A stretch of 64,000 nucleotides of DNA from positions 1 through 64,000 of the forward strand of contig QPGO01000105.1 of the NCBI GenBank assembly GCA_008632985.1, written 5' to 3'. The DNA comes from Psammoneis japonica. Lineage: Eukaryota. Position 1 is the stretch's first letter; every line of letters begins with the position of its first letter. A program made the translations under genes and the position numbers. A model generated the notes under the pieces. It saw only the letters and a program-made list of their open reading frames with translations. It had not been told where the DNA came from and did no database searches. Shown in pieces: positions 1 to 64,000 of the stretch.

Positions 1-510
1 CATTTTGAAAGATTGTTCCCACTGCTTCCCAAAAAACAGGGTTTGGGTCAATTTCTGTTGGTGCAAAGAAACTCACATGGAAAATTCAGGCAGAATGTCT
101 TGTTTGTCATGCTTTTCCTGTGCTTTGCACAAAACAGGCCACAACCTCAAGGAGTCAATTTCAGTCACAATGGCTGGCACTTTGTGTGCTTGCTTTTTGA
201 TGACAAACATGACAATGTCCACAATTTGGCAAAATTCCGTCATCAGAAAAAGTTTGCTGTGGTCAGACCAGAGTGAAGTGCCAATCAAATTTCTTAAAAT
301 GGAGTTTTGAAGTGTTGATGCATGGAATCACGTCACTTGTGCAAAAGTCGTTGTCATGCAAAGCACCAATGGTTTCAGGGGAAAGCAATTCCTGGAGGTT
401 CAGCGGAGCCAAGAAAAGAATGACAAAACAAGCATGAGAAAAAGTTGGCCCAAACCCTGATTTTTGTGATTTTTTCTGTGCAAAAATTGCATTGATTTTT
501 GTGCTGCCAG

Positions 511-751
511 CGCACATGGCTTGTTGGACCAAGGGCACAAGGCTCAGTCAGCCAGGTGTGGCAACTGACCTCCCTGGTCTTTTTGCCAAACTGCCCTGAG
601 GTCTGTTCTTTTGCCCTGTGGTTTGACATGATTTTTGTGCCAGTGCACCTGGCTTGTTGGACCAAGGGCACAAGGCTCAGTCTGCCAGGTGTGGCAATTG
701 ACCTCCCTCTGGTCTTTTTGCCAAACTGCCCTGAGGTCTGTTCCTTTGCCC
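511..751 (+). repeat. Two-copy direct repeat, period about 134 bp
   Basis: ggcttgttggaccaagggcacaaggctcagtc...ggtctttttgccaaactgccctgaggtctgttc occurs at about 518 and 651. Confidence 0.85.
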
Positions 752-3300
752 CATCCATGATCATCATGTGGGTGTGCTGTCCTGTGCAAAGAGCAGCAAC
801 AATGCTTGGACATCCCAAAACCTGTGCACAAATCACCTTGTCTAAACTTGGTGGAAGAAATGGGCATCATCAGAGACATCTCCTTTGCAGTGTGCCTGTG
901 TTGCAGCTGACAATTGTCAGAGTGACAGATTGCAGTCTTCACCAGCTGCCAGCCACAGGCAGTTCTGCACAAACTGTGCAGGAAATGCACCAGGGTTTGT
1001 TGAGAATTTGATGATGACATGATTCCATTTTGACAGCTGCAAGCAGCAGGAACAAACATGATTTTCCAGCACAAATGTGACAGTGACACCACAGACGGAG
1101 TCATTGTCAACACACCAATCACTGCATCATTTTGGGGTTTTGATCACAGGAATTCCTTGTGGTGTCCTTGAGTCCAGTGTGTGCCTTGGATGAGGACAGA
1201 CATCTGCAAGAAATTTACTTGCGAACAATGTGCTAAAGAGAAACCCAGATTTTGGGACACAGCTGGCTGGGCACAAAGTCATTTGGCACTGAATTTTCTT
1301 TGACAAGAGGAAAGACAAGGAAACAACATGAGGAAAAATCAGTTGGTGGCCCAGCATGTGGTTGCAACCATCATGATCCTTTCATCCAGCTGTTGATTTG
1401 TCCACAGCCTGTGGCTGCTAAAACACCTCTTTTTTTGCACTGCACTCAATGGGTGAGGCACAGACACCATTGGGGGGCACTTTCTCAAGGACAAAAACAT
1501 GTGCTTCCATGGACACAAGTGCGCTGTCTGCTCCAAGCAAGTGCGCAAAAGCTCAAGGTGGTGTGGCAAATCTGGCGCACATTGTGCAACAAAAGAAAAG
1601 AGGAAGCCTCTTTGTTTCCTTCATTCTTCAACAAGTCAATGAGGGGGAAATCAAGATGGAGCATGAGCAGAGTTTTGGGTCATTGGGAGCTCCTCTTGCA
1701 TCAGCCCCAGATTTCCTCAGATGAAAGGAAAATTTCCTGCACTTCTTTGGTGCCAGATTTGACCAATGCAGTCCTTTCATCTTGCAGCCAACATTGTGTC
1801 TTTTCATCTCTGTTGGTTGGCAAGTCCAGATGAGTGCAACCACTGCAGTGCTTCAAGTGGCCCACACCACAAAAAGTTTGGCTTTTTGTTGCTGAGATGC
1901 CCCCTTTCCTTTTGCAACCCTTTTTTCACCATGCAGAGCTGGCAAAAATGCCTTTTGACTGCAGTGGCACAGCTGCATGATCTGGCCAATGCCCAGTGCC
2001 AACATCATGAGAGAGGACGAGGCCAGCCAGCCCCCCCCCCCCCACTGCGCACCTGCTGACGGGCTGTGCCCTGCAGCTGGTCTTGCCAGCACAGCACTGC
2101 AGACAAACTCATTTCCTTGGACACACACCACAGAGAAATGCACTCTTGATTGCTTGTCTCTTGTGTTGCAGGTGGATCCTTTCCTTTTGCAGTCATTTTT
2201 TCACCAAGAGCTGGCTGCTGTGCTGCCAAGAAGCCTTGCTGTGCTGCTGCTGCTCACAGCAGGCACAGTGTGGCACAGAACCTGACACCTGATTCTGAAA
2301 GTCAGCCTTCAATCTGTCAAGTGCAAACTTAAATTGAAGTGCACAAGCTGTGAGAGCCAAGAGCCTGAGTCTTGCAGCAAGCCATGCCAAGGGGCCTTTG
2401 TGGTGGTGTGTCTGCCCCACTTGCTTGGGTTTTCTCCTGTCTCTCTTTTCACTTGCACACTTTCCAAAGAGAAGCAGCACAGCAAACAACCAAGCACCCA
2501 ATGCATTGAAGTCAATGTGGGTGCATTCATCAAGCGCAGCCATCTTTTCTGCTGTTGGCATGAAGATGTGGCTCTTGCTCTTCCTGTGCGAACTCTCCTT
2601 TGATGTGCTCATTCATTGCAAGCTCCCATGCAGCATGTGTCGGTGATTCCTCCTGAGTCAATGAAGAGAGTGAGGGTCGTCTGCTGGCAGCTAGAGCCAG
2701 TCTCTCCAGCTAGAGCCAGAGCAGAGAGACAGAGCAGGAACAACAGAGAGGACAGAGGAAGCATCATGCTCCATCCGTCGTTGGCGACTGTGTTCCAACC
2801 CTGCGACGGTTCTCGCACTCTTTTGCGTGCGGGCTTCATGGCGCCCAAAATGTGGTGCGCACCACACTTGCTCCAACACGAGCCGCCGCGTGCAGACATG
2901 ACAAGCGTGTTGTTGCTGTCATTTCTTTTGTGTTGCATCAGAGCTCCAACGCGACGCAACAATGCCACAGCTTCCCTCTCCGCAGCTGTCGATTGGCAAA
3001 GGCAAGACTTGATTCAACAGTCACTTGAGATGTCAGTTCTCTTGTGCTTGCACTTTTGTTTCGGCTTTGTTGTCAGCGTGCTGCAGCAGACACGCTGTCA
3101 AATCAAAATGACTGCGTCTCCTGCCGAATCCACTCCATTCAGGGATCTGTTTTCTTTTCTTAGAATTCAAAGCTTCGGAGCTTTTAACTCTCTTTTCAGA
3201 GCTCGGGGTTGAGACAGTCGATGATCTTGAGTTTTTGGAAGAGAAATGTTTCGAGCATCGCCCATCAATTTCTCCGGTTTCCGTGTAAAAGCTCCTTCTC

Positions 3301-5112
3301 GTGATTGACTTTATTCAAAACGGTGGGTCGATTGACGGATTTAGCTGCTTTCAGGATCTGGTCAAGTCTGTCAAGGCTGCAAAAGCAACATCGGCCCATG
3401 CATCGAAGGACAAGAACGGTGAATCGACAAAGGAGCTTGACCCTTTCGTCACCCCAAACGTTGGAGGACACAAGTTTGCCACGTCGCGCAAGACGCTTTC
3501 AAGCGCGTCTGGATCGTTTCTGGAGAATCTAGTTTCTGGACGGCACCACAATCCTGCTCGTCAAGACAAGGACGGCTCCCATTTCATTGATCGTGATGGT
3601 GCGCACTTTCAACACGTCCTCAACTTTCTCCGCGTCGGAACTGCAGTGACTCTTCCAGAAGGAGCCACGGCCCGAGAGGCTCTTGCCATGGAAGCTGATT
3701 TCTGCGGTCTTCACGAGCTTTTGCAAGCAGTCACCTTCCCCATGATTGAAATGGACGATCACCTTGACGAGGAGACTGTCAAAATTCGCAAGGATGAGGA
3801 CGCACTTCGTGGGGCTTTTGCGGATGGATCAGCTGCCAGTTTTGATCTCTACAGGGGTCTCATTCCTCCACTTTGTCCAGATGATCCTCCATCGCAGCCG
3901 TTGCATCACCGACCTGAAAGCCATTCGAGTGAAAATCATCATTTGCTCATGAACAACTTGCGCAACGACGAAGCAACGAGCAATGCACCAGTTGCGGTTG
4001 GAGCCCTTAGCGAGTTTGAAACCAATTTCAACCGCAAGCATCCAAATGTGCTCCACAGGCTGTCGGACGTCCTTCGTGAGGAGCCTGTCGTGATTGCTGG
4101 TGGAGCGGTGCTTCGTTGTCTCACCTCCAGTGCTGGAAGTCGCACGGCTCAATGGCGGGGCAAGAAAAGTGACATTGATGTGTTCCTGCACTGCAGCAAC
4201 GTGGAAGAGGCCAATCGAATTGCTCGACATGTCTGGAATGCATTGGCAGTGGACGACGAAATGTGGGTGATTGTGCGAGGTCGGGGAGTCATCACCATCC
4301 ATGACTGGGTGGATGCCAAGAAAACGCAGATCCTTCAAATCGTTCTTCGGTTGCATCAGTCTCCCGCCAAGATCCTTCTGGGTTTCGATTGCGACTGTTG
4401 CTGCTGCCCACATGACGGTGCATCCGCATGGGTGACCCCAAGGTGGCTCCATGCTGTGCAACACGGTGTCAACATCTTAAACCCACTCCACATGTGGCCA
4501 AACAAACCATCTCATGAACTTCACTTGGCAAAGTGCGCTCATCGTGGTTTCACTGTTGCTGTTCCAGGACTGGATCAGATGCGCATCGACTGCGACCGAA
4601 TCCGCCGCATGGATCTTTGTGATCTCAGGGGCATGGCCAGGCTGTTGAAAGTGTTGTTTGCAATCGAGCTCACGTGCAATCGTTCATCCGATGACATTCG
4701 TGACATTGACTTTCTAAAAGATGACCAAGACAGTTGTGCGGAGATTACGGAGCTTGTGATCCATGGGAGAACAGGAGTTTGCGAAGAAGGATTTGACAAT
4801 GTTGCAGTGATTGTCCCTTCTGATCACAACTTTGGAGGTGACAACATGCCTCCTTCCCCTGAAATGTGGTGTGATGGCCACGATGAGTTCCCGTGTGCTC
4901 AGTTTTGCCGTGACAAAGTCTGGGAAGAAATTGAAAACAACCAAAACCCTCCCAACGGGGTGCCAGGTCGTCTCTCGGACTCATGGAACCTCGAGAAGAA
5001 GTCTGGTGAGCATTTGAATGCCACCTTGGAGAATTTCGACCTGGTCAATTTGTGCCACATGCACGCGCACAAGACTCATGTGCAAAGGAACTTTGTGGGA
5101 AGGGGTGGTTGA
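3301..5112 (+). pseudogene. KCTD-type BTB/POZ domain fused to a Pol-beta-like nucleotidyltransferase domain; open frame but hypermutated
   Basis: BTB motifs NVGG-F-TSR-TL, FIDRDG-HF-HVLNFLR and EADFCGL. NTase-like IAGGAVL...SDIDVFL, QIVLRL...ILLGFD-DCC and SHELHLAKCAHRGF. Only one Tyr in 603 aa; positions normally Tyr read His or Cys. Confidence 0.75.
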
Positions 5113-5570
5113 CATCATCGAGGTCCAGAGCCTTGCATCTCCAACAAATTGCATTCCTCGATGCTGCAGTCTCAAAGTTGAAAGACATGATGTGCATGGC
5201 AGTGCCGTTGTTTTTTTCAATGCCTTGCTTTTTTTCCCTTGCTTCTCCTTGCAGTTTGTGAATGGTCGATGTGTCGGCCGTCGACTGCTTGCTGATTGGG
5301 CGCCACTTTGACTGGTGGATGTGCACTGTGTGGGGCATTTAGTTTGTGAAGTGGCACCGACATGTGGGATTGCTGAGTCTTCGCTGGGCTGTGCAGGCTT
5401 CACCACGCGCCAAATTTGTTCAAGTTGAAAGCAATGGTTTGCTCCAGTGTTTGAACAATGTTGCCATCCTCCTCATTGTCGACATTGCGGGCCAGACTTG
5501 CTTGTTCTTGCAGTTGCAAATCACAAGTGGCAGCTTGCACCGTGTGCGCTCCTTCACCAACGGTGCTGTT

Positions 5571-5690
5571 GCAGTGTTCGATGCAATTCCGCAACCATCC
5601 CTTGTCGAATGGATTTCGATGTTGACCGGCTTCATTCTGCAGATGCTTGCACCGTGCCAAATTCAAATGCTCATTCATGGCCAATGAGGC
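5571..5690 (-). pseudogene. Decayed fragment of a DHHC palmitoyltransferase C-terminus (TTxE/PaCCT region)
   Basis: AMNEHLNLARCKHLQNEAGQHRNPFDKGWLRNC matches the ZDHHC pattern TTNE..N..RY.YL....Y.NPFD.G...N once C/H are read as Y. Confidence 0.6.
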
Positions 5691-5859
5691 GACAGTCAAA
5701 GGTCTTTGTTGAATGATGCTTGGCCAGGAAGATGACTTTTGAAGCCACCTGTCGTGTGTGTCATCCAACCTTTCTAGTCTGGGCTTGGTGACATCTGATT
5801 GTCAGTGGGTCTGCCAATGTTTTCCAGATGGTGCTGCTCCTGTGCAGAGCTCATCAACA

Positions 5860-6177
5860 CCAGCATTGGTGTGCATGAAAACAGCATCATGCAGGAACAA
5901 AGTGGATGCTGCACCTTGTTTGGCCCTGGAAACAACCTTTCAGATGAGGAAATGAAACAAAAAGTCTGCAAGTGAAGGAGGAGCCATTGCAGTCATTGCC
6001 ATTTTTGGCAGCAAATGTCCAGCATTGGTGTGCATGAAAACAGCATCATGCAGGAACAAAGTGGATGCTGCACCTTGTTTGGCCCTGGAAACAACCTTTC
6101 AGATGAGGAAATGAAACAAAAAGTCTGCAAGTGAAGGAGGAGCCATTGCAGTCATTGCCATTTTTGGCAGCAAATGT
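5860..6177 (+). repeat. Exact 159-bp tandem duplication
   Basis: 5860-6018 is repeated at 6019-6177 (ccagcattggtgtgcatg...ggcagcaaatgt). Confidence 0.92.
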
Positions 6178-7963
6178 GAACAATGACAGCAGTGTGTTCT
6201 TTGTGATCTGCTGGCCCCTGCAAGGCAAAGGAAATGACACATGGGCAATGAGCACATTTGCCATTTTCTCTCCCAGCAGTGTGCTGCATCTGCTGCCTGT
6301 GAATTGGGCCAAGGGCTCCACAGCTTTCTGCTTGCAATCACTTCTGCCAGGTTGCTTGTGTCCCCAGCTTCCAAGTGCAGCCACTTTGCATGTCCCAAGA
6401 AGGCACAAACCTCAAGCATTTTGAGCACAATTTGCCTGGATTGCTTGTCCACCTTTGTGGTGGCAGAGCAGCTGCCTCCATGTGCCAGATGTCAGCCAGC
6501 ATTAAAAGTCACTTCTGCCAAATTGTTTGTGTCCCCACCAGCATTTGAGCATGGCACTTCTTTTCATGCCCCAAGGCACAAAACCAAAGCAGCATTTGGC
6601 ACAGCTTGTGCAGGTTGCTTGGCCACCTTTGTGGTGGTGGCAATGCAGCCTCTGACAACAAAGCAGCAACATTGACAGCAACAAGCAAAGAAAGCATTTT
6701 TCATTTGTTTTTGCTCACTTTGTTGCAACCCTCCTTGGCTGTTGTTGGGTGTCAGAAATCATGCCCTGTGCTCACTCACAACAAAACAACCACCACAAAC
6801 ACACTTCCTGTTTACAACATTTGCATGAGCAAGAATTGTGTGCTGGAGGGTGTTTGGAAAAGTGCCCTTGCCAATTTCCAAAACAAGGTGCCCACATTCC
6901 TTCAAACAAATCCAGTCACTTGGCACATTTTGTTGCAAGTTGTTGTTGCTGAAAACACTCAAAGTGTGCTCCTTGATCATGGTGCTGCTGCTGTCAGCTT
7001 TTGACAAGCACCGCTCCGAAGTTAATTGGCTTGCAAGCGTCACATCAAAAAATGTCAACACCTGAAGCCGAGCAACTTCTGAGTGTTGATGGACAGGAGC
7101 ACTGCTGCAAAGAAACAAAATGACAAAGATGCAGCTCTTGCTGGGGCAAAGAAGCTGCACAAGCTTTGGATGTGCTCATGTGATGCAAAAGCACACTCCA
7201 CCCCTGTGGAAATGTGTCAAATTCAAACCAAGTTTGGGCAGTGTGTTGTTCAAGATGATGACTGCTTTGGAGTCAATGGGAGGCACTCATCTTTGCACTT
7301 GGCAGTCCACCCCAGAACATTCATGTGGTTGACACTGTGACAGCCATTGTCCTTTCAGAACCACACCCCAAACAATGAGCCTCAGCAGAGTTCAAAATTT
7401 CTTCACTGATGCTGCTGTTTAAAACAACGCATCTTGATCCCCCTTCAGTTCCCACTGCTGTGTCCAAATGACTTCAAATGTGCAAAAGAAGAAAAGCTGC
7501 TCTGCCTGAGTTTGAAGAAGGAAAACATTTGCTTTTTGAGAAGAAGCTGCCGCGAGCATCCCATCTCGTGAAATTGTCATGCATGGTCCAGCAGCAATGA
7601 ACCGCTATGACATGCCTTCACTCGCGCTCACTTTGATGTTGCGTGCGGGACGCGTGCGGGACGCGTGCGGCAGTCGAAACAAACAACCAGAGAGCCCACA
7701 ACATTGCACATTGAAACCGATGTGAGTTCATCAATCAAGAGTGAGCATCTTTTCTGGGATTGGCACGACGATGATGTGATTGTGTTCATAAAACGCTTTC
7801 ACACAGCATGTGCCTGTTATTACTCCCAAGACAATAAACGAGAAGTTCCGCGATTGATCCTTGACGCGTATGAATTTTGACACTCTGCCACAAAGAAATC
7901 AACAGTAACAGCACATGGCATACGTATCTCCAAAGGTTATCTCTAGGTGCTATACATTTATGC

Positions 7964-20415: not shown

Positions 20416-20769
20416 GGGGTGCTTTGTAATGTGACTTGTAGTTCTTTGTTAGCATTTATGACGTTGGAAATTGAGCTTTAAAAACCCTCAGAGCTTCAAC
20501 GGATGTAGCGCTGTATTATAGGAAGGAAACTAGTTCCACCAGAACCAATTTGGGCTTTGCGACAGTCTATGATGACACAGCACATTATGAATCATCTCCT
20601 TGAAATGGGCAAGCAGTGGAGACCGATGCTATATAAGGCCTGACATGCGTTGCGTCCGACGGTGCGTACCGATAGATTATGTTGTGTTGCGATGCGGCAA
20701 ACGGCAAATGCAATTGAAACACGAGCTCAAATTTAATGTTTATATAGCGCCCCGCATGGATGTTGTTGC

Positions 20770-23700
20770 AAACGTTGCGATTCAATTCACACTTTTTTCC
20801 GTGCAAATGATGTGAGTTTTTGTCAGGGGTTTGTGACATTTGTGTCAAACTTCAACCAAGACATCCATGCATTGTTTGTGCTGAACACGGCTCATTCATG
20901 CAGGGTTGTCAAAATCACATTTTGGTCCACAGTGTTGCGCTCTGCGTTCCACAGCTTGTTGGGCAGCTTCAGACTCATTGTGAATCAAGTGCAATGATGG
21001 TGCTCCTGGCACAGCACTGCAATGGTGCCAGAGTTCTGTCATGAACAACTCTCCTCCCAAGTCACCTGTTTGCACAAGTGCTTGAGCAGAACAGAGGTGC
21101 CGCTGTTCAGTTGTTGCCTGATTTTCTGGACTTGGCATCTTGCCCAACTTGCTCAATCAAGTGTTTTGGCCCAACAAGTCACAGTGGCTTTGTCAAATGC
21201 CTGGGGCTGGAGCAGTTGCCCATGCACTGAGTGGTTTTCTAGAAAGTCCCCAAATGCCTTGAATTCATGGGCTAGCTGGGAGCAAGAAATGAGTGCTGTC
21301 ACCATCAGCTGTGACCTTGACAAATCCCTCAAGCACACTGTGGATCTTGCTGAAAGCATAACTTGGCAGAGGTCCTTGGCCTCAGCAACTCCCTCTGGTG
21401 CTGCCAACTGACCACACATGCAAGGCAGCATCTCAGCCAACCCCTTTGAGAAAGGCGCTGAAGGCAACAGCATCGGCCATGGCAGAGTGCATCAAAATGC
21501 ATCTTTGGAGGTGTTGAAAACAAAGAGCACTCAGGTTGGCACAAACATGTGTCTGCATCTGAAAAAGCAAGACACACCCACTGGGTGAGTGGCTGCACAC
21601 AATGTGTGGTCATTTGGCTGTCAAACAAGAGAACCAAGTCAGCTCAGCAGCAGCACAAATGACACAATGACAAACCAGCACACAAAAACCCACAAATTGA
21701 TGCAACACATGTCCTGGCACATGTGCACATGCACAATGAGTTGTCTCCAATGACTTGACACCCACTTTGCTGGTGCTTGGGCCACGCCAGCAATGCTGTT
21801 CATTTGCATTCATTGCCCAACCATTTGCACACTGCCATTGCCTGTTCAAAACACAGCAAACAACAGGCTGGAAGTTCTGGCAGGAGTTGGGGTGTGATTC
21901 AATGCAAAACAAGTTGAAGTGGCACAATCAATGGGAAATTGGAGTTGTGGGTTGTTTGTCTGTGTGGTCTGCCACCCAAGTGACAGCAAGCAAATGGCTT
22001 GATCAAATGACCAAAACCACCAAATGTCCATTGAGTGATGTTGTGGCATGACTCTCTTGCTCCAGCAGCAAGGGCACACCCAAAGCCCTGTAGCAACACA
22101 CAATGATGAATGCACCAATGGCTGCCAACAGGAAAAGCGGCAATTTTGCAAACATGCAAACTCTCCCGCACTTGCAGAAAATGGACTTCTTCAAAATTTT
22201 TGCTTGCCACCTTTGTTCTCATGAGTGTGTGAAGTTGAAAGTCTTTGGCTTGGCAAAACAGAAAGTTTAGAACAACTGTGCAGAGGATTGTGCACAACAA
22301 TTCTTGCAAGAAGGAGTCACATGCATCTCTGGGCAACGCGCATCAAAATCCTGTCCTGTCTTTCTTTGGCACAGTGTGTGGCACTGCATCATCAGCTTCC
22401 TCTGTGCACCCCCAGATTGTCTGCATCAAGACAGCTGAGCTCTCCCACACCTTTGGCAAAGTCTCTGTTTTCTTGTGCATGTGTCCAAATGAATGTTTGA
22501 AAAGCAAGCTCTTTGTTGCAGCTACCAGCACAAGTTTCTTCTTGCCACTGCTCTTGCACTGCAAAGCCAGGCTGGCTGTCTGGTGCCACTTTCTTTGCTT
22601 TTGGTGCACTCTTTTTGCCTCAGCTGCAACCCCCCCCCCTTGGGCTGAAACCTTTTGAGATTTGCATGTTTTGTCATTTGGCTGGAAGCATTGCTGGCTC
22701 AACTTCCTGCATCCCCTCTCTTCTTGGCTGCTGGCTTGCAGGCTTCTTTGCTTTGTCCCACTTGTTTGTCTTTTTGCTTTTAGAGTGAGACTTTGCTTTT
22801 TCTTTGACTTGCTTGCAGGAGAATGTTTGCTCTTTTTCTTTGTGGCAGCTGCCCTCTTCTTTGTGGGCACACTTTTCTTGGCTCCTCAGGTTTGGACATG
22901 GACATTTCAACCTTTCCAGAGCTGTCATTGACTCTGCTTTTGGCACATGGGTCACATTCTTTGATGCTGCAAGCACTGCTTTTGGCTGCAGTGGAAGCCA
23001 TTGTGCTTGTCATCAACTCTCCGAGTCTTTTGCAGCAACGCAGCAACTTGAGCAATGCTCCCATTTTGTTGCTGTCCAGAAATTGTCACACTCTGTGATT
23101 GTTGCTCAGCGACCAATGATGGTGCTTCTCCCCATGACTTTTGATCATGTCTCAGCATGTAACAACAAGTGCCGTTTTGCCTGAGAGGCAGCTGTGGCGA
23201 AAAGACACAGCTTTGCACCACTGCCTGTGTGAGGGCTCCAAAACAACTGCTCACATGCCAGCTGCAATAACTTGCACACTGCTTTGTTTCAAACAACAAG
23301 GCACTCAACTGGCCATGCAGACATGGTTGCATCCACCTCTTCTCTGCCTGCACCAGTGCCACAGCATTGCAGAGATTGTTGCCAGCAGCAACAGCAGCAT
23401 GGGAGCAGCTTTTGCAGCCACCAAAAGGCTCAAACTAGAGTGGCTGGAGGAAGGCTCTGCAGCAAAAATGACAGCAGCTTTTGTGGCAGAAAGCTCAAAC
23501 TTGCCAGAAAAAGACTCTTCTCCATGACAAGGTGATGGCAGCAGACAAGGTGATCATGTCATCTCTGGTGGAAAAGTCAAAAATGGCTGAGAGCCAGGCT
23601 TTTCTCCAGAGTTGGAGAAAGAGGCAGGGACACCAAAAACAGCAGACAACTTGATGGTGAGTTGTGAGGTTCTTGTGGCCCATGATGCAACTGATGACTC

Positions 23701-23960
23701 TGAAGAGACCAACCATGTTCTCAAGATTGGGGTTGACCTGAAAGCAAAACCCAGAAAATGGGGGGCACTGTTTTGCCAGTTGCCTAAAATTGCCATGGGT
23801 GCTGCCTTTGTTTGTCAAGACAGCAAGGAACAAGGCATGTTCAGTTCTGTCATGCCTTGAATGCCTCCCTGAGTCGGCAAAACAGAACATCAAGTCTTGG
23901 AGACAAGCCAAGGCCCATTTTGAGAGAGTCTGTCTGTAGATGTTCCGCAGGTCATTGCAT
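20770..23960. other. TpA/CpG-depleted hypermutated block
   Basis: Near absence of TA, Tyr-free six-frame ORFs and sharp edges. Confidence 0.85.
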
Positions 23961-42151: not shown

Positions 42152-42491
42152 AGCAGTGAGCACCTCTGTTTTGTGGGAAAAAACCGTTTTAAACAATTGG
42201 GTGGATGGATGTGTTTCAATGGCCACATCTCTCCCTCAAACACTGTCATCCGAACAAACCCTCAGTGTCTCACCCCCTTTTCATGTGTGCGAGGAATTTG
42301 GTTCTGCTGCTCGTTTTCTCCTGTCACAAACAGCAGAACCAAATTCCTTGTGCCAGCACATGAAAAGGGGGGTGAGACACTGAGGGTTTGTTCGGATGAC
42401 AGTGTTTGAGGGAGACACATGATCATTGAAACACATTCATCCACTGAATTGTTCAACGGTTTTTTCCCACAAAATTTGGGTGCTCACTGCT
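42152..42491. mobile_element. Second copy of the foldback inverted repeat
   Basis: Same sequence as 37189-37528 at offset 4963. Confidence 0.8.
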
Positions 42492-42938
42492 CATTTCCAA
42501 GAATTTGAAAAGAAAGTTGGGGACCCACCGTGTGGCTTGCAAATCAGCGCTTGATGTGGCTGATGTCACGTGTGGTCAACCCCTGACTTTGTGCCATTGT
42601 TTCAGACCGAGCTGGCCACAAAACTTGGTTGGATGGAGTTGTTGTGTTCTGCTCGTAGAGGCTGCACCATTTCTACGCACGTAGAATTCCACTGCGGGAA
42701 CCGATTTTTGAAAGTGCGCACAAGTGCGTGACCCCATTTTTAGAGTCGAAAGCTTCCTGCCAAAACTCCAAAACTGTTGCATGTTGTAGGAACAACTCAG
42801 CTTTCTGGTGTGTTTGCACATCGCCGACCGGATTGAGAGAAAGACATTCATGCCAAAGCGGGCTGCCTGCAAAGGCAAGGTTCTTGACATGACCGAGCCT
42901 TTAATGTGGCTCTGCTCTTTTGCTGGACAGCACAAATT

Positions 42939-45047
42939 GTGACACAACGGGCGGTGCATCTTGGTTTCCTCGCAGGCCTGGGCCATCGACGATTCCACCC
43001 GAACGTGAAATGTCTCTCATCGATGGTGTCGAGGCGTTCGTTGTCGCAACTGAGAATGGCAGAAATGGTGCCAACCTCTGTTCCCTCCTTTGATGATGCG
43101 CCCAAGAGTGAGCGGTGTCTTTTCGATTTCTTTAAAAAGTTTCTGCCTGACGAAGACTTCACTGTGTGGTGGAACATTCGACTTGTTCCTTTGTCCCGAC
43201 AAGTGGATTTCGTCGCACTGGCCCCAACAAAAGGGCTTTTGATTGTCGAAGCCAAAGGCTACCCACTTGACTGGATTGTCCAAGGTGATGTGCAGCAGAT
43301 CATTTTGAGAAGACCATTCGATCCTCTGTCTGAAGCTCGTGCTGAAAAGCACCCATTGTGGCAGGCCGAAGGATACAAGAACCACCTGCTAGACATGCTC
43401 AAGGCGGAGAAAATGCTCTGTCATCCAAGTGGTTCTCGCCAGGGACAGCCATTGCTCCCAGTGGGACGTTGCGTTGCGATGACAGCGGCCAAGCGTCAGA
43501 ACCTAAAACGTGAAAATGCCCATGGTGTCTACGTGAATGACATTTTCGAAGACAACTCTGTGCTGTTTCGAGATGACATTGAAGCTTGGAAAACGCTTCC
43601 CCCGGAGCAGCGGATAAAGCATTTCGAGTCTCTATTTGATTCTCGGGTCGAATGGCATCCAGAGTGCCCATTGACGAACGATCAGATTCAGACGATTAGA
43701 GGCTTGCTGCACCCGACGACGCAAATTTCCCGAGTGCCGGCACAGGCAGCAAGCTGGAATCTTGGTGGTCTTCGCCACATGCCGACTGATGCCACGGTGC
43801 TTAAGAGTTTAGATTTGAAGCAGGAACAAGTTGCCAAAGGAATTGGAACGGGGCATCGAATTCTTGCTGGGGTGGCAGGATCGGGGAAAACACAAGTTTT
43901 GCCATGTCAGGCCAAGATCTTATCGGAATGCAATCCCGACGCGCGTGTTCTGGTCACCTGCTGCAACAGGACCCTTGCAAGTTATCTGAGATCTCTTCTT
44001 TCTCCGTATTCAAACGTGGAGGTTTCGCACTTTCATGGATGGGCGGAGAAACGTGTGCTCTTGCCGCTGTACACTGGCAAAAGAGTAAAAGATGAGGAAA
44101 CAGACGGTGCAATCGCAGAATCTCTTTATCTTCACTGTGAGACCGATCGACACGATCGACACGACGCTATACTGGTGGATGAGGCGCACATGATGAGCGG
44201 GGCATGGCTCAAGAGTCTAGTCGGTTTCTTGAAAGACCCTGATGGTGGCGACCTGCTTATTGTTTGTGATCGATCGCAGATGCTGAAGCAGCGTTCTTCT
44301 TTCACGTGGTCTTCGGTAAATATCAAAGCACGAGGGCGCACAATGACGTTCTCTCACAATTATCGAAACACAAAGCAAATTCTCAATATGGCTTGGGGAC
44401 TAATGACATGTCTGATTGGCAACAAAACAGATTCCGTGTCCAAAGATGAAGCCTTTCCTCTCGTCAAACCGTCAGCGGCGCGAAGGGATGGCCCAAAACC
44501 CACGCTCTTACCTACAAACAATTGGAAGAAGTCGCTGTTGGAATGTCTTGGTTACTTGCTGGACAGCGGTGTCCCGTCGAACGACATTGCGATACTTTAT
44601 CGATGGAATGTGCGAGGATTCGTTAAAAGACTCAAGGAGGACATTGAACGTCGTTTTGGAAGCGGCATTGTTTGTTGGGTCAATCAGGACCAACAATCAA
44701 AAGACCGGTTCGGTTCGCAGAAAAAGGGCATGAGACTCATTGCTCACCAATCGTCGCTTGGCTTAGAGTTCAAGCATGTGATTGTAATTCGACCGGAGCA
44801 TTTTGAACGTGACCTGTTTCTCCCGTCAAAATGCGATGACGTGGAAGGTGCTTGTAAGGAGACACACGTTGGATTAACTCGAGCTTGTGAAGAGCTAACT
44901 CTTGTCGCTGAAAGTGTCAGCCAAATGTCTGTTTTCTTTAAACAAAAGGCTTCCGAGCTGGATCTTGTCATAGCTGATCCTCATGTGCTGGCTGACTTGC
45001 AGCACCCAACGGAAGAGAACGCGCCTGAACACCGCCACGACAACTGA
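42939..45047 (+). pseudogene. NERD-UvrD helicase, copy 2; open frame but first ATG changed to GTG and many TpA-derived substitutions
   Basis: Relative to copy 1: ERYL>ERCL, TCY>TCC, RYD>RHD, TYL>TCL, EYL>ECL, VYW>VCW, QYP>QHP and several I>V/M/T changes. An internal ATG (MAEMVP) remains. Confidence 0.8.
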
Positions 45048-47163
45048 CTGTCGTGGCTCTAATGACAACCCCAACAAGTGGTGGTTTTCCTTTTCACCAC
45101 TGCGGCCTGTGTGCACGAAAATTTAATGGTTGGCTTTGCAATGCGTCGAGCCCAGCCAGAACTGCTCTTTATGTTACACTGTTCGTCACACCGAAATGAA
45201 ATGGCCAGCTACACCACCACGCCAAGTGAGGACTTCATCTGCGCACCCGCACAAAACTGTCCGTCGTACGCTGATTTCTTAAGCCTGACATCCACTTTCT
45301 CATTGGTCACCGTCAGGAACGATTTTGCATTGGGCTGAGCTGACGATGCCTTTTCTGACATCGTCATCGTCCTCCGCAAGATGGTTGGAATCGGTCAGTT
45401 CTTGGGCTCGAGACGATGACGTCACCACGTGCAAAAATCGCTGCCGCACCGACAATCATGAACCAATGAAAACAAACAAACAAAACAATTGAAATCCAAA
45501 GTTTGTTTGCACTGGGCCCAAATCAAGAAGAAGCACTGTCACAAATGCTTTCTGTGTCAAAAATGTGGTGAAGGAATTGAAACTTTCAAAACTCTGAAAC
45601 AATTTGTGAGAGAGACCAAAGTGGCTTGCACACCCTTCAGCGCAAGAAATGCCACACCACCAAGCAGCAAGAAGGAAGAGCAGCCTGGCACTGAGCAGCG
45701 CCCTTGTGCCAAACAGACTTGGCAAGCTCCACTTTGAACTTGTGTGCAAGCATTTGCTCTTTTTGTCTCGCGCACCATGTGCTTTTCTTTTTGAGTCTGT
45801 TTGCCCTTCTTGCTTGGTGTGCCCATTTCTTGCACAAACATTTTCGTTTCCTTTTCTCATTGTTGCAGCTGCTGCCATGCCATCCTGGAGAGCAATTGCA
45901 CATCTTGCATTTGCTTCCTCAGCAACATGGCAATGTGCACACTGTTGCTGCTGGCAGCAAACAAGATGCTGCAACACGCAATTGTGAAGGCACCCAGCGG
46001 TTGTCATGTGCTGAAGCTGGTTTTGCTTTTGTGATGACTGTGGAAAAGCTCCCCGCACCACAAAGACTGTTTGCAACCACATCTCACCCAGCTTAGAAAA
46101 AATGGCAAGAGCACAGCCAATCTCTTGAAACAGTGGGCTTCTCAACTTTTCTCACTCTTTCCATGAAGTGCGCGCAGTCTCCTCCTCCACTGACACCTCA
46201 GTCATCACCACAGTTGTGATGTTGAGCCACCTTGTTCATCTTGACCTGCTCCTTGAGCCAGCTGTGCTCTGCAACAACTTCTCTTTGGCAAATCTCTCTG
46301 TGCACAGCCACGTGCTGCTCAAGATTTGTGAAAAGGGCAACAAATGACACAAGCCTCAACAACAAGCAGATTTGTTTCTTGTTGCACTGCACAAGCCAGC
46401 CAGCAGCAAGTCTGTGCCACCACAGGTGTTTTGGGCACCACAGTCACGTTGAGCTGCTGTGCTGCTGCGCTCATTGTGGCTGGAAACAAACTCAGATTGT
46501 GCGCTTCACTGGAACAAGCCAGTTCTTCTGATTGATCTGTTTGGTGGCCTCAGTGTTGTGCATGTTGCTGTTCATTGGAAGGCACTCTTGATGTCAAAAA
46601 TTGCATCATGTTTGCATTTGTGGCAACAGCTGCAACAACTGCTGCAGCTGCTGCAAAGCTTGGTGCACCCCTGCTCTCAGCTCAATGACCAATGCTCTCA
46701 GCCCCAGGCTCACAAAAACAGCTTGGAGGCTCTTCTGTGCCCAGGCCAGCTTGTCAAAATCACCTCATGTCCATGAGCTGTCACTTTCATCAAGATTTCC
46801 TTCATTGTTGGAATCTGGCTCAATTGTCTTCGGGTGACCAATCCCCAAAGAAAGGCCAGGTGCCACAACCTGACTTTGACCTCTGTTGGCATTGCTGGGA
46901 ACAAAGAGAAAGAACCCAAGTCTGCCTCCAACAAAATTTGCCACATCTGATGCTGGCCTTGCAGCATTGTCAAGTGCCCCAGATGACTGGAGACACATCC
47001 CATTTTGCACGCACGATTGAGAGTCAGACGTGCGTGCCGGTACGAAGCACCACACCCAGCCATGCGCGGTTTCATTGTTCAGCAAGGTGTCGAGTGGTCG
47101 ATCGTTGAGAGTTTTTGTCGCTGTCCCTGCAGAGTTCGATTCCGATCATTTTTGAGGACAACC

Positions 47164-48027
47164 ATGACGGTTCGGTGTCATGTACCCTCCTACTTCATAA
47201 CTGGAGGACAAACCGGGGCGGATTCCATCCCCCTGCGGGTTGTCTCCACGGTAGCCAACAACAACAAGCACATTTCTGGTGTCCGCGGCTATCTTCCTGC
47301 TGGATGCAAGCGTTCGGATGGACAGGGTTATGAAATAAAGAAAAAGTTTGGATTATGGGAAGGGGCTGCCGTGAGTAATAGGTATGAATGGCGAGACAAG
47401 GCCAATGCGGGCATGGCAGATGCATGTGTGTGTTTTCTTTCCACAAAGCCCAAAACCGGAAGAGGAACACTGAGAACTGCAAATATTTTCATTAATGGAC
47501 AGTATGAAATGGTCATGGTAAAGAAACCAGATACAATGGACTGGCTTGTGATTGGGACTGCGGTTGCCAAGGAACAAGATGAGGCAAAGGTAGACGACTG
47601 GAGATACTTGATCGCGAAATCACAAGAGGAAGAAACTGTTGAAAAACAAAAGGCGGTCGCTCTAGAAGGAGAAGCCAAACAGCTTTCGAAGAGGACTCTT
47701 GGCGAGAATGGCACAAAACCGGGAGGCTTTTCCTTCTCGTACGAGAATCCAAAATACCCCATCATGCCATTGGCAGAACCCGACCCACTTTCACCGAAAA
47801 CAAGCAAGCTCCAATTCACGAGGAGACCAGTCCTTGTGTTTTGGGATGTAGAAGTACCGAGAGAGAATGATGACACAACATCCCGACTAGCAGAAGTTCT
47901 CCGCGAATTTCTGGACTTTTATGAGCCCGAAAACCTCATGTTCTCTGGTGCAAAAGAGGAAACATGCCCTGGAATTGAGGAGAGAGGTGCTGCAGTAGTA
48001 GTGGAAGCCCTTTGGGGTGAATCTTGA
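47164..48027 (+). CDS. SLOG-superfamily putative molybdenum-carrier/YpsA-like protein
   Basis: ITGGQTGAD motif followed by GYLPAG...SDG, Y..RD.AN...ADA and GT..T. Intronless. Confidence 0.65.
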   Translation: MTVRCHVPSYFITGGQTGADSIPLRVVSTVANNNKHISGVRGYLPAGCKRSDGQGYEIKKKFGLWEGAAVSNRYEWRDKANAGMADACVCFLSTKPKTGRGTLRTANIFINGQYEMVMVKKPDTMDWLVIGTAVAKEQDEAKVDDWRYLIAKSQEEETVEKQKAVALEGEAKQLSKRTLGENGTKPGGFSFSYENPKYPIMPLAEPDPLSPKTSKLQFTRRPVLVFWDVEVPRENDDTTSRLAEVLREFLDFYEPENLMFSGAKEETCPGIEERGAAVVVEALWGES

Positions 48028-55557: not shown

Positions 55558-55799
55558 GAGTGTGCTTTGCGTCGTTTTGTTGTTACTCTCACAACAAAGA
55601 ACAAAGAAACAACAGCTAACCTACCGACCCGCAATGCAAAGTGATGATGATGTCGTGCCGTGTGGAATGTTATCGTTGCTCTTTGTGTGTTTTTCCCTTT
55701 TCAATTTTATTCGTGACCAGAGATTTGCTATGCTCGCTCACAACGGACCATGCTGACGTACTTGATTCGAATCGTACGACTGGACGTCAAGGCATTTTG

Positions 55800-58300
55800 G
55801 AACCCAGGTGATGGTTTGAGGACTGCGGATGGGCATTGCAAGGTTGATCTTGTGGTGTTGTGGCCCCATGTCACATTGTCCCCAACAGCAGCACAGACTT
55901 GACTTCCCCAGCTCCAGAGTGCAAGGATCCCATGATGGCACCAACCAACTCAACAGCTGCAAGCTGAGGGCATTGGTCATCTCTGGCAATGGTGGGCCCA
56001 GGCGCACCCAACACTTTGAGAGCTGTGGTTGAGTGGTTTGCAAGGTTGATCTTGCAGTGTTGTGGCTCCATGTCACCTTGTCCCCAACAGGAACAGTGAG
56101 TCAACTTTTGTGCCCCCAAAGAACTCCAAAGGGAAAGACCCCGTGACACAGCACCTCAAAACCAACCTTGAAGCTGCACGCTGAAGAAACTGACAGAGTG
56201 TCTGGAGGACCCCAGCAGGCAACACACTGAGAACTGTGGTTGAGCATTGCAAGGTTGATCTTGTGGCCCCATGTCATCTTGTTCCCAACAGCAGCAGTGG
56301 AGTTGAGCCACCAAACTCTAGAGTGAAAGACCCCATGACACCAGTGCCAACCATCCTGACAACAGCAGGCTGAGGGCAGCATTGGAGGTCTCTGGTGTGG
56401 GCGACACATTGAGAACTGTGGTTCCTTTTGAACACTGCAGGGCATTGATCTTGTGGTGCTGTGGCCCCATGTCACCCAGCCCCCAACAGCACCAGTGGAC
56501 TTGAGCCTCTCCAAACTCCAGAACAAAAGACCCCACCAACTGACCTGACAACAGCAAGCGCGGGACTTTGGCAGTGTCTGACAGACCCCTGGCAACACAC
56601 TGAGAACTGTGGCTGAGCATTGCAAGGTTGATCTTGTTGTGTTGTGACCCCACAATGTCATGCTGTCCTCAACAGCGGCAGACATCTTGAGTTTCCAAGT
56701 TCCAGAGTGAAAGGGCCCCCCATGGCAGTGCCAAGAACCAACCCAGTGGCTGCAAGCTGGTGGGCAAACTGGTGGTGTCTGGCAAACCTCAGAGGAAAGA
56801 TTGAGAAGTGTGGTTGAGCATTGAGAGGTTGATCTTGTGGTGTTGTGATGACCCAACAATGTCACCCACATGTTGTCCTCATCAACAGTGGCAGACTTGG
56901 CAAGTTTCCAAGCTCCAGGGTGAAAGGACCCCATGACAGTGCCAACCAACCCAAAAACTCCTGCAAGCTGAGCAAACTGGCAGTGGCTGGCAGACCTCAG
57001 AGGAAACTTTAAGAATGTGGTTGAGTGTGTTGCATGGTTGATCTTGTGGTGTTGTGGCCTTTGCCTTGTCTCCAATGGCAGCAGCAGACTTTTGAGTCTC
57101 AAAACTTGTCCAGAGTGAAAGGAGTGCCAACCAACCTGATGACAGCAAGCTGAGGAGGGCACTGGCAGTCTCTGGCAGAGCTCAGGCAATGCTTTGAGAA
57201 CTGTGGGCTGAGCATGTTGCAAGGTTGCTTGATCTTGCAGAGTTGTGGCCCCACACCTTGCCCCCAAGAGAAGCATGCCCAGGCCAGGTTTCCATTCAAC
57301 TCCAGAGTGAGAGGACCCCATGACAGCAGCAACCAACCTGACAACAGCAAATGAAGAACACTGGCAGGACCCACGCAAATCCCACGTGTCACCTGTTCAA
57401 CAAGTTGCAACTTGGCAGAAGTTTCAGTTGCTCAAATCTCCCTGATTTAATGGATTTGGGTCAAGGTGTGAAGCCATCAAATTGTTTTGAAAAGAAGCAC
57501 AGCAAACTTTCAATGAAAGCACCACTTTTGATGCTTCTGACCAATGGATGGATGCCGGAATGTGAAATGTGCGGTGAGCACTCGAGGGCAAGTTTCACAA
57601 CATTTTCCATTGTTGTGCTCACAAAATCAATTCTTTTTGACATCTTCATTGTCAGGGTGAAGTTTTCTTGCCCATTGTTTCAGAAAGAATGTGGGTCAGA
57701 AGAGCAGCGAAGTGCAGACAAAAATTTTGTTGTGCAAATCAAACATCTGAGGAGCCGCTCCCTGCCAGTGCTTGGCACCACTTTCCAAGACAAACCAGCT
57801 CAAGAGCCCCACAGACAACTGGCTGAGATGTGCGTTGCACATCAATGACAGATCTCCAAGAGGTGCTGCACAGCTTGGAGACTTTCATCTGCTGCTTCAG
57901 TTTGACAAGCCTGGCCCATCACAACCTCCCCAGCCCAACAGCTTCCAGCATCTCAAGCACTTGCCAAGCTTTGCTTTTTTCATTCCAATCACCCACAATC
58001 ATTGCAATTGAGAAAGCATGACAAGACACTGTTGATTTGACAACAACACACAATGAATCTTCTGGCAGTCCAAGTCGATTTGGTTGTCAAGTTGGGTGGC
58101 TGGCAATCCACTTCCAGGCTGGTCTGCATTTGTTTCTGCTCAAGCAAAGCCACCCCAAAAAGCCAGACACATCAGCCCACCTGCAGCAGAAATTTTGATG
58201 GAGAGCAAAAGAAAACTAGCAAAAGTGTGACAATTGACAGTTTGAGTGGCAATCACCCACCAATGTCCTTCCTCATGCGATTGTGGAAAAAACGATGCCT
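55800..58300. other. TpA/CpG-depleted hypermutated block
   Basis: Same dinucleotide signature. Confidence 0.85.
55830..57350 (+). repeat. Degenerate tandem array, about 8 units of about 180-210 bp, TpA-depleted
   Basis: gcaaggttgatcttgtggtgttgtggccccatgtcac recurs at about 55838, 56040, 56249, 56441, 56622, 56825, 57033 and 57225, each followed by ccagagtg..aggaccccatga. Confidence 0.88.
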
Positions 58301-61503: not shown

Positions 61504-61564
61504 NNNNNNNNNNNNNNNNNNNNNNNNNNNNNNNNNNNNNNNNNNNNNNNNNNNNNNNNNNNNN
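61504..61564. other. Assembly gap (N run) followed by poly-C
   Basis: Run of n characters. Confidence 0.99.
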
Positions 61565-62399
61565 CCCCCCCCCCCCCCCCACTTTCTAAACTGAACTACA
61601 ATCCCACCATGTTCATCGTTGCGAAAGTCAATCATGGTTCAGATGTCTACAACTTCTTCTCCGTAACCTGCAGCGCGCGACGATACCTTCGAGACGAGAT
61701 CATCCTCCTGTGAACTAGACGAGACATTTGGAGTCCCCCAATTGTTGTTGTGTCAGACCCAGCATGAATATCGCTTCCAGTTAGAATTGAATATGATGAA
61801 ACAATACCACTTGAGACGCAACGAGACGACGACTCCAGACCGCATGATAATTTTTCTCCAGGAGAGACGACATGACTCAAGACGGAACGAAATTCCTCGC
61901 CACAGCTGATACCCACAGCATATCCAAGAATGCAGAATCTTTTCATAACTATGAATCAAAAATTAGGTCAAAGAAACGTGAGTGAAGATACGAAATGAAT
62001 GAATAACTTTCTTGTCAATACGAGAGAACGACATTTCTCTTCACAGCTCCCACCCACAGCATACTCAAGACACGTTTCGTAATTATGGTAAGTCGATACA
62101 AGCAATGGGGTTGAACAAAGGAGGTGCAGCGAACGAACAAACATCGGAGTTTGGGTTTTGTCACTCAGAAATGGATGACAACAGAGAAAAAGCCCATCTT
62201 TTGATTTCTACACGACGAATACACCATTTCTCGCCAAAACCAATGGCCGTGCCTAACAGTACCTTCCGAAATCAACGTGAAGGCCTTCCTTGGACGGAAA
62301 CGATGAAGAACAGCTCAAACAAGGCCGAGCATGGGTCGGCAGCGCATCATCACACAAAACTAAAAATCCACGCTCCGGAATAGGAAAAGAGAAAAAAGT

Positions 62400-64000
62400 C
62401 TGCGCGCTCCGCGGTGCGTGTGTGCCGGTGTGTGCAGTCCAGTCAGTGCAGTTGCCGGCAGCCAAAGAGCAGCACGCAAGGTTGATCTTGTGGTGGTGGT
62501 GTGGCCCCATGTCACCTTTTGCCCAACACAGCAGCTGTGGGTCCCAACCCTCAAGTAAATCCAAACTGGCATGGCAGGCATGCTCCTGATGAGTGCACAG
62601 ACTGTCACCGCGGTGCTGTCACGGGGAATTTGATCAAATCTCGCGCCGATGATGGCAATGATTGCGATGCCAAGAAAGCCATCTGAACCTTCGATTCTGC
62701 AAGAACGCACCTGGCACGTGATCAATTGGCATCTGTTCGACAGGCATCTAAGTGCGTTCTCCATGATTTTGATTTTGTGGCGAGCCATTGATGAACATGC
62801 CGATTCAGTCGTTCGTGACACGCCATGTCACGTGCCGAGTCTTCATCAACCACTCATTCGTCGGATTTTCGACACCCGCTGAGAGCAAAAGCCGGCAGAT
62901 GCACAAAGGCAAGTGATGTAGAATCGAAATGGTGTTGTCATTGTGCCAAAGTCTCACCACTTGTTGTCTCACTCAACTGTCACTCAGACGCAGCCAATTT
63001 TCACAGAGTGTCGATCGTCGTGTGAGCTCATCAATGAATCCAATGTCGTTGTCCTGTCGTCAAACCCGTTTTAGCAAAGCCAATGACAAGAGGAATGTTT
63101 TTCAAGACTTTAACAAAGCAACTGCAGTGCAATCAGCCAGTGTTTTTGAGTGGGAGAGGGTGGGGCGTGGGTCGGATTTTGGAGCAAAAATGCAGAGTGA
63201 AGTTGGCGCACTGTTGAAAAGAAGCAGTCAAACAACGTTGACAAAGTCACACATTGATGACACTCTCCTGTAGAAGAATAAATTTATGCAATGGAAGTGC
63301 CCCCTTGCTTGCACATGCTCTAGATTGATCGCAAAAACACAAAAATGTCAAATGTGAAAACAGGAGTGTGTTGCTTGCAATGAGTTTTCATGGATTGCTT
63401 GGCCCATCTGTGGCATGAAAGAGGTCAAACACAGTTGTCACGAGGCCAGCCCTGGATTAGAGAATAGAACACGGCCATGAAATGGGTCTTGTGTTGATGT
63501 TGTCATCCAATCTAGGTGTCGAGAACACTTCATCGTACAGCGAGTCACGTGTCTTGAATCCCGCATGACCCACTCGACTCAACATTTTTGGCAGAATTGG
63601 CTAGACTCTGATCCCCGCTAGGGCCACAAAATGCACAAGATGTGAGCATTGTCAGTCTCCCACCTTTTAAAACAACGTCTTGCGAGAATAGATTGGGTGT
63701 GTGTTGTTCATGGTGTCGGGCATTTGAAAATGGAACCAACATTTCGTGGAGCACCTTTGTCACACGTGAAAGCACGAGGGACAATTTTTAGCCACAGCTC
63801 CACAACTGACGCAACCCTCCACTTGCGACCCCAAAAGTCATCGGGAACTTTGTGCCAGCATGATGTCAGTCGGCTGGAAATGCATTTTGGCAAAAAATGG
63901 GGGGGTTGTGATCACACGTGGAAGCATGACGTTGGGGCCCATGGCAGCAGACTTTTGAGCCCCCAAGCTCCAAAGTGAAAGACCCCATGACAGCACCAGC
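62400..64000. other. Partly TpA-depleted block with isolated units of the 55.8-57.3 kb repeat family
   Basis: gcaaggttgatcttgtggtggtggtgtggccccatgtcacc at about 62476; gctccaaagtgaaagaccccatgacagcacc at about 63967. Confidence 0.7.

Follow-up and report, generated by a model that had tools for sequence, protein, structure and literature searches.

The DNA analyzed here, called the window below, is a 64,000-nt stretch of the diatom Psammoneis japonica (positions 1 to 64,000 of contig QPGO01000105.1, assembly GCA_008632985.1). It is eukaryotic DNA with few introns, and its genes include BTB, MORN, LRR, ERV/thioredoxin and HAD hydrolase genes. Diatoms account for 14 of the 15 named organisms with homologues of the ERV/thioredoxin gene; the best identity is only 59%, so the window has no close relative among database sequences. 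About 40% of it consists of TpA-depleted stretches with sharp limits. These stretches (blocks), together with a tandem duplication of a helicase gene that lies among them, are the subject of this report.

A 500-nt sliding profile and a two-state hidden Markov model (HMM) of P(A|T), the chance that a T is followed by an A, were run over the window. The HMM places the depleted segments at 3-7781, 20766-23931, 27879-29147, 33434-37663, 40346-42653 (plus 42709-43343), 45297-47171, 55796-58296 and 62415-63254 (plus 63702-63988). This confirms the sharply bounded TpA-poor domains described in an earlier note on this DNA, whose list of blocks deviates from the segments by a few hundred bases at most. 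The HMM puts P(A|T) at 0.012 in the blocks and at 0.158 in normal DNA. The eight main blocks total about 24 kb and hold 67 TpA dinucleotides in 23,970 nt, compared with 1,541 in 36,609 nt of normal DNA. The observed/expected ratio (O/E) of TpA is 0.02-0.10 in blocks and 0.55-0.69 outside them, while that of TG and CA is 1.6-1.9 in blocks and 1.0-1.3 in normal DNA; the earlier description of the blocks as rich in TG/CA, and of the genes nearby as normal in TA, is thus borne out. "Nearly TA-free" fits the listed blocks except the last, at 62.4-64 kb: 62415..64000 is a partly converted end stretch (TpA O/E 0.1-0.36, CpG 0.5-0.9).

The earlier note had staked its reading on a bimodal TpA O/E, and over 128 non-overlapping 500-nt intervals two modes are found, at 0.04 and 0.55 (in a mixture fit the Bayesian information criterion is -27.9 for two components and 52.3 for one). 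There are 22 TpA-free gaps of at least 400 nt, with a maximum of 947 nt; in 1000 uniform random placements of the same 1,673 TpAs the longest gap never exceeds 527 nt. The transition at a block edge takes from tens of bases to about 200 nt and falls 150-450 nt outside the ends of adjoining open reading frames (ORFs). An example is the TpA-free, CpG-poor block at 20766..23931 (11 TpA and 20 CpG in 3,166 nt), whose left edge, at 20745, can be placed to within tens of bases: the 450 nt before it have 26 TpAs and the next 350 nt none.

The tandem duplication occupies 35826-46989. Repeat X1 (35826-37663) is followed by helicase copy a (region 37664..40345; plus-strand ORF 37949-39898, of NERD plus UvrD type), which has 100 TpAs, a normal content. 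Next come the TpA-free repeat X2 (40346..42653), helicase copy b (region 42634..45305; plus-strand ORF 42888-45047, with stop codon TGA), which is half converted, and the TpA-free repeat X3 (45297..47171). A three-way alignment shows X2 to follow X3 (97-100% identity) as far as about 41020 and X1 (100%) thereafter. X2 is a hybrid of X3 and X1, and the switch between them indicates that the duplication arose by unequal crossover between old direct repeats flanking a single helicase gene, with X1 as the left partner and X2 as the product. Given this origin, copy b never left the chromosome, and its conversion took place in situ.

Since the duplication, the TpA-free X sequences have diverged by about 0.2% (some 4 differences over about 2,050 nt). 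Copies a and b differ at 61 positions in 2,680 nt, of which 48 are at TpA, 5 at CpG and 8 elsewhere. Forty-eight of the 100 TpAs of copy a read TG (29) or CA (19) in copy b, none is changed in the reverse direction, and all 52 TpAs of copy b are TpA in copy a too. Expressed as the fraction changed in copy b, TpA stands at 48/100, CpG at 4/161 (2.5%), and dinucleotides that do not overlap TpA at 1% or less. Copy a represents the ancestral state, because outgroups match it at informative sites: eight outgroup helicases side with copy a at 18 sites, while 6 sites favor copy b (all but one of them within a frameshifted tail), and seven or all eight agree with copy a at Tyr412, Tyr583, Ile163, Arg328 and Thr606. 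Conserved Tyr, Ile, Arg and Thr residues have been substituted in copy b. Taken from divergence (48% of TpA against about 0.2% in X) and not per generation, the rate of conversion is well over 100 times background. GC-biased gene conversion was considered and rejected, since A/T sites outside TpA are almost unchanged.

Several observations on the duplicated gene stand apart from this comparison. Its named relatives are mostly cyanobacterial, with a few archaeal, the nearest at about 44% identity (two matches without an organism name reach 64% and 56%), which suggests, from sequence, a gene of bacterial origin in a eukaryote. Just upstream of the helicase ORF, at 37882-37883 and 37912-37913, the two copies show double differences, TG in one and CA in the other. 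These may go back to TpAs of the ancestor that each copy resolved in its own way, with slight leakage into the edge of copy a. Read-derived contigs from sequencing run X1 (a run label, distinct from the repeat) show variant letters at six sites of copy a between 37753 and 39431, all six in TpA. A>G or T>C accounts for five of them and A>T for the sixth; the variants at 39183 and 39431 are at about half depth, and several resolve the TpA otherwise than copy b does. The variants may belong to another haplotype or to a copy mutated independently, which would make the process recent or polymorphic; the contigs derive from one DNA sample, and their depths and mosaic letters give neither copy number nor phase.

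The same change can be recognized in the old blocks wherever an ancestor can be compared. At 2500..5500 (plus strand) is a TpA-free, CpG-normal stretch with a hypermutated BTB_2 gene (ORF 3289-5109, stop TGA). Its product has a single Tyr in 607 aa, compared with 3.1% Tyr in homologues. At the 16 columns where Tyr is conserved (present in at least 60% of 21 BTB_2 homologues), it has His in 10 and Cys in 4 (14/16), encoded by CAY and TGY, and it still agrees with 159 of 200 conserved columns despite full conversion of TpA. A MORN remnant at 28878-29227, overlapping the right end of the TpA-free block at 27879..29147, reads TG/CA at 11 of the 13 TpAs and 8 of the 10 CpGs of the MORN gene at 19411-20415. 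The TpA-free, CpG-poor block at 33434..37663, which ends in repeat X1, contains an LRR-gene remnant (33930-34224) in which 7 of 8 aligned gene TpAs are now TG/CA; CpG conversion in the gene remnants is 8/10 and 11/11. Pyrimidine-purine steps make up a fraction of 0.2407 in the blocks, and normal DNA has practically the same value, 0.2412, which is what transitions alone would produce by shifting TA and CG into TG and CA. By summed coordinates, about half of the block DNA is traced to the BTB_2 gene, the MORN and LRR fragments, the three repeat X copies and three tandem arrays. The proposed coincidence of blocks with repeats and gene remnants holds for that half, and the rest, part of it on one unbranched read-derived contig, is without recognizable origin.

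Conversion of TpA has a particular consequence for reading frames. It cannot make TAA or TAG; it removes stop codons, and the harm it does comes from missense changes, such as Tyr to His or Cys. TAA plus TAG occur at 4.7 per kb in the blocks and 36.8 per kb in normal DNA (both strands), and with stop codons so scarce the blocks are full of long meaningless ORFs, 201 of them of at least 70 aa.

The bases flanking TpA influence how readily it is converted. In the young duplicate, conversion has reached 24 of 32 RTAY sites (R, purine; Y, pyrimidine), 19 of 45 mixed sites and 5 of 23 YTAR sites (chi-square p = 2.9e-4). The 67 TpA survivors in the old blocks comprise 46 YTAR, 20 mixed and 1 RTAY, while the corresponding counts in normal DNA are 267, 812 and 462; the implied survival is about 26% for YTAR, 4% for mixed and 0.3% for RTAY. 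The ranking, with RTAY converted most, mixed less and YTAR least, is the same in three data sets (the duplicate, the old blocks and a metagenome locus described below). With the same specificity, the same flank rule and an unchanged pyrimidine-purine fraction, the old blocks are, as the earlier note had supposed, the saturated end state of the TA to TG/CA process seen in the duplication.

Two rules of strand were tried and rejected. A rule of "A then pyrimidine" describes, pooled, 37 of 48 mutated and 42 of 104 unmutated cases, but it is not upheld in mixed contexts, where the counts are 13:6 in the duplicate and 2:5 at the BTB_2 Tyr codons, or 15:11 together (p = 0.56). Since the flank does not predict the changed strand, the preference is stated for the duplex site. 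Strand bias or strand-coordinated clusters find no support in the counts of TG (29) and CA (19) in copy b (p = 0.19), in the His:Cys ratio of 10:4 (p = 0.18), or in a runs test (z = 0.93).

TpA hypermutation of this kind has been reported a single time, in a 2026 preprint on Bigelowiella natans (Mettrop et al., bioRxiv 10.64898/2026.01.13.699255); no description of it in diatoms was found in the literature searched. According to the main text of the preprint, of the 231 mutations that two silent viral inserts gained in mutation-accumulation lines, 230 are A to G or T to C, all at TpA. The rate is about 1000 times background, in some lines only, and the lines are mitotic. The targets are integrated giant-virus and virophage DNA. 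The authors' proposal is that an ADAT2-like enzyme, directed by RNA or by chromatin, deaminates adenine, and they cite reports that ADAT2 homologues edit DNA in amphioxus and trypanosomes. None of the words trinucleotide, flanking, context and downstream appears in that main text, figures and supplements aside. We consider it likely that the window records localized mutation of TpA to TpG or CpA (directional, in place, on both strands, modulated by flanks and bounded), and that the process is of the same kind as that of B. natans.

Both the flank rule and the in situ conversion bear on the possibility that A-to-I editing by an ADAR-like enzyme acted on double-stranded RNA of repeats and was then fixed in DNA through reverse transcription. 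A change of A to G with a 5' U/T preference is similar, as the B. natans preprint points out. Copy b, however, stands with its promoter and flanks in an array made by crossover and was converted in place, and both strands are affected (29:19). Furthermore, the context preferred by ADAR, 5'-UAG-3' (PMC11334849), is a resistant one here: CTAG and TTAG survive, and a 3' G follows only 7 of 48 mutated As, compared with 23 of 104 unmutated orientations. Conversion in place and the resistance of this context make the RNA route very improbable.

The indifference to strand also leaves room for thymine as the base attacked. A TET/JBP-type enzyme would modify T in TpA, giving 5-hydroxymethyluracil (5hmU) or a derivative in silent DNA, and mispairing or misrepair would then turn T into C. 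TpA is palindromic, so that T to C is equivalent to A to G on the other strand, and the flank is blind to strand (15 vs 11). Thymine modification in some protists favors TpA; a literature search for 5hmU at TpA found nothing, and 5hmU is not, to our knowledge, a strong T to C mutagen. Nothing in the window supports thymine attack directly, and the sole experimental study, in its main text, proposes adenine deamination. We regard attack on thymine as improbable, somewhat less so than the RNA route.

Loss of CpG has a different history from loss of TpA. CpG O/E falls to 0.11-0.15 in old blocks, while CpG is retained in the BTB_2 stretch and in copy b, both of which have lost TpA. Among the 128 intervals, 82 are normal for both dinucleotides, 36 are low in both, 10 are low in TpA and normal in CpG, and none is normal in TpA and low in CpG. 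The earlier description of the blocks as poor in CG is therefore right for 36 of the 46 TpA-low intervals and wrong for 10, including those at 2.5-5.5 kb. The further proposal, that TA and CG drain away by one process, is not supported in that form: 48% of TpA but 2.5% of CpG is changed in the duplicate, and with the reverse class missing (0/128) CpG loss is slower, separable, and found only where TpA has already been lost. DNMT5-dependent methylation is described as a mark of diatom transposons (Hoguin et al. 2023, PMC9998398), and the CpG decay seen here may reflect deamination of 5-methylcytosine in methylated repeat DNA. Decay of that type matches the observations in that loss of CpG to TpG/CpA is confined to repeat or silent blocks (36/46 TpA-low intervals). 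It accounts for the CpG part only; in the young duplicate, CpG has been lost about 20 times more slowly than TpA.

Evidence for the same kind of process in a second organism comes from a survey of 31 metagenome loci of at least 3 kb (299,852 nt), anchored on homologues of the housekeeping ERV gene. One of these, L079, contains three sharply bounded blocks that are low in TpA and high in TG/CA, two of them CpG-poor and one CpG-normal. Its ERV protein is 38% identical to that of the window, and the sole lead to its taxonomy is an Atlas cluster labeled mostly Haptophyta. Of the 13 TpAs surviving in its blocks, 10 are YTAR, 3 mixed and none RTAY, compared with 158, 429 and 213 in the rest of the locus. 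No block is found in the other 30 loci; these are mostly genic DNA, and so provide no evidence of absence. As a separate observation, the TpA-free, CpG-normal block at positions 6540-8390 of L079 has long ORFs of 296 and 343 aa, on both strands, for which Pfam gives no match, and may be a recently converted gene, like BTB_2.

The second carrier also helps to judge whether the blocks could be artefactual, either through base-calling errors at modified bases or as natively TG/CA-rich sequence that never had TpA. Heavily modified DNA can indeed mislead some base-callers. The blocks recur in read-derived contigs of run X1 with 0-1 differences, although that run may be the assembly's own source, and the agreement is then not independent. 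The metagenome contig is unrelated and has the same blocks and the same flank rule, while the gene remnants and the Tyr to His/Cys pattern show that there were ancestors that carried TpA. In B. natans, Illumina data show the same mutations de novo, according to the main text of the preprint. An artefact is thus scarcely credible, about on a par with the RNA route.

The process we propose runs as follows. A localized mutator, acting at the level of DNA, would turn TpA into TpG or CpA (A:T to G:C at either base pair) in the diatom nuclear genome. It would work within bounded domains that are gene-free or silenced until almost no TpA is left. Conversion ends tens to hundreds of bases from genes that look active. 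It can engulf host genes, copy b being half converted and the BTB gene fully. The best-supported candidate for the chemistry is enzymatic deamination of adenine to hypoxanthine in DNA, by analogy with the proposal for B. natans, a suggestion for which we see the case as evenly balanced. We are similarly divided on whether targeting follows chromatin or silencing state in place of sequence homology. Copy b itself shows a gradient, with 23 of 36 TpAs converted in the outer 400 nt of each end and 7 of 27 in the middle (Fisher p = 0.0047), a pattern suggestive of blocks encroaching from either side on a copy that the duplication had made redundant. The process as a whole might serve as a defense against mobile and redundant DNA.

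Homology could instead be the trigger, with duplicated DNA sensed and mutated in the manner of repeat-induced point mutation (RIP) but with A to G chemistry, so that the blocks are former repeats. Every traceable mutated piece is in fact either a duplicate within the window or a member of a gene family (copy b, the MORN and LRR fragments, X1-X3, the tandem arrays), and X1 and X3, which are 80-89% identical, have 23 discordant TG|CA dinucleotides, as expected from independent mutation after duplication. Yet copy a has none of its 100 TpAs converted despite about 2.7 kb nearly identical to copy b, and the LRR gene's 549-nt internal repeats (50607-52870), which are 82% identical, retain a normal TpA content. 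One unbranched read-derived contig runs through 33001-35879, so that this part of a block is at present no high-identity repeat, and the hypermutated viral insert of B. natans is single-copy, as its main text describes it. The untouched copy a and LRR internal repeats, the single-copy target in B. natans and the nesting of CpG decay within TpA loss are the reasons for preferring a chromatin or silencing trigger, and a homology trigger seems unlikely to us, though the least so of the alternatives considered here.

Several points weigh against the localized, chromatin-directed mutation of TpA that we favor. Copy a also lies between two old blocks and has 0/100 TpAs converted. Chromatin spreading alone does not explain this, and selection or chance has to be invoked. 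Near codon 632, however, a 1-base frameshift alters the C-terminus of copy a, while copy b keeps an outgroup-like length (651 aa from MAEMVP). Copy a may therefore be non-functional, which makes protection of copy a by selection uncertain, unless the frameshift is an assembly error. The very sharp edges of the blocks and the kilobase-scale gradient in copy b sit uneasily together. Because TpA is palindromic, sequence cannot tell A from T as the base attacked. The mutational origin of the old blocks is argued from mass balance and from the remnants inside them. In addition, none of 132 block ORFs of at least 80 aa reaches a Pfam curated cut-off (two weak matches have E-values of 0.007 and 0.001).

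The Pfam search of these 132 ORFs likewise revealed no transposon or viral domain, which leaves a transposon or viral origin of the blocks unproven. Terminal or inverted repeats were sought in four blocks, yielding just short tandem pieces and one 93-nt inverted pair. A search for tRNA genes found none, and two block stretches searched against a sequence index gave no look-alikes. The first block consists, besides the BTB_2 stretch, of an old TpA-free, CpG-poor part at 1..2500, with a 133-nt tandem repeat at 505-751, and an old TpA-free, CpG-free part at 5500..7781, whose right limit lies between 7606 and 7789. Within the latter, at 5860-6177, is a tandem duplication of 159 nt that is 100% identical; it must be younger than the conversion, and relics thus still rearrange. 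The TpA-free, CpG-poor block at 55796..58296 is mostly degenerate tandem repeats of about 208 nt (55805-57350).

Some neighboring features deserve mention. An ORF at 46987-48027, whose product matches the circularly permuted YpsA SLOG domain of Pfam (E 2.9e-7), begins at the edge of block X3, with its first 180 nt or so within TpA-free DNA. The stretch at 54250-55250 is GC-rich (GC 0.57-0.60, TpA O/E 1.1-1.25, CpG 0.35-0.6), has overlapping long ORFs on both strands, and includes a 51-nt tandem repeat at 54698-54851; it is probably a low-complexity coding repeat with no relation to the blocks. Minus-strand genes at 29507-30920 and 53449-55620 are distant paralogues (31-39% protein identity), both TpA-normal.

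What is new here is the flank rule, the order of TpA loss relative to CpG loss, the one-sided attack on a fresh duplication, and a second, metagenomic carrier. The window can be read as a time series that runs from a gene still untouched, through a half-converted copy and a gene whose TpA is fully converted but whose CpG is intact, to old relics without CpG. For annotation, TpA-free DNA yields long false ORFs, and converted genes keep open frames though dead. The flank rule offers a testable fingerprint in the search for an enzyme. If the process is enzymatic, it would be a second kind of mutational genome defense in eukaryotes, with chemistry opposite to that of RIP and now in at least two supergroup-level lineages, and a natural DNA adenine deaminase would interest base-editing research. 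We raise one broader idea as a speculation that we think more probably wrong than right: distant algal lineages (this diatom, B. natans and the L079 eukaryote) might share a chromatin-guided DNA editor that recognizes duplex R-T-A-Y, converts either A:T pair to G:C, and erases mobile DNA and redundant host gene copies soon after duplication, the enzyme being a natural adenine base editor. Such a shared editor, if real, would shape gene-family turnover.

Besides decay of methylated CpG, three known systems invite comparison. The ADAR, ADAT and TadA enzymes are alike in A to I chemistry with a 5' U/T preference; they act on RNA, and the 5'-UAG-3' preference given for ADAR in PMC11334849 is unmatched here. 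RIP, in Neurospora and other ascomycetes, resembles the process in the window as a dinucleotide-specific transition hypermutation that inactivates repeated or redundant DNA and leaves sharp domains of odd composition. RIP can leak into neighboring genes, and it creates stop codons, whereas the process here makes none and removes TAA and TAG. As described in PMC2621366, RIP runs in the opposite direction, CpA to TpA by C:G to T:A, where here TpA is lost and CpA/TpG gained, and it hits both duplicates, where here copy a is converted at 0/100 sites and copy b at 48/100. Timing distinguishes RIP, which is premeiotic and depends on cytosine methyltransferases of the RID/DIM-2 type, from the B. natans process, which the preprint's main text places in mitotic lines.

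The closest parallel is B. natans, as presented in the main text of the preprint, although the two cases differ in several respects. The host is a diatom (Stramenopila) here and a chlorarachniophyte (Rhizaria) there. Saturation is further advanced in the window, where TpA O/E is 0.02-0.05, compared with 0.45 in the nucleocytoplasmic large DNA virus (NCLDV) region of B. natans. The traceable targets here are duplicated host genes, gene fragments and repeats, with no viral or transposon domain in the 132 ORFs, in place of viral inserts; the helicase, with its cyanobacterial relatives, may itself be of foreign origin. Old blocks in the window are depleted of CpG as well, a dinucleotide absent from the main text of the preprint. 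In B. natans the mutations were seen arising de novo, while here the process is known from sequence divergence only. The likenesses go to the character of the process itself. In both, changes are almost only A:T to G:C transitions, at TpA, giving TpG or CpA according to strand, and they fall in bounded regions at rates orders of magnitude over background. The B. natans genome also has, genome-wide, clusters that are depleted of TpA and enriched in CpA and TpG, as are the blocks of the window, and reverse-transcriptase and DDE domains are overrepresented among its TpA-depleted coding sequences.

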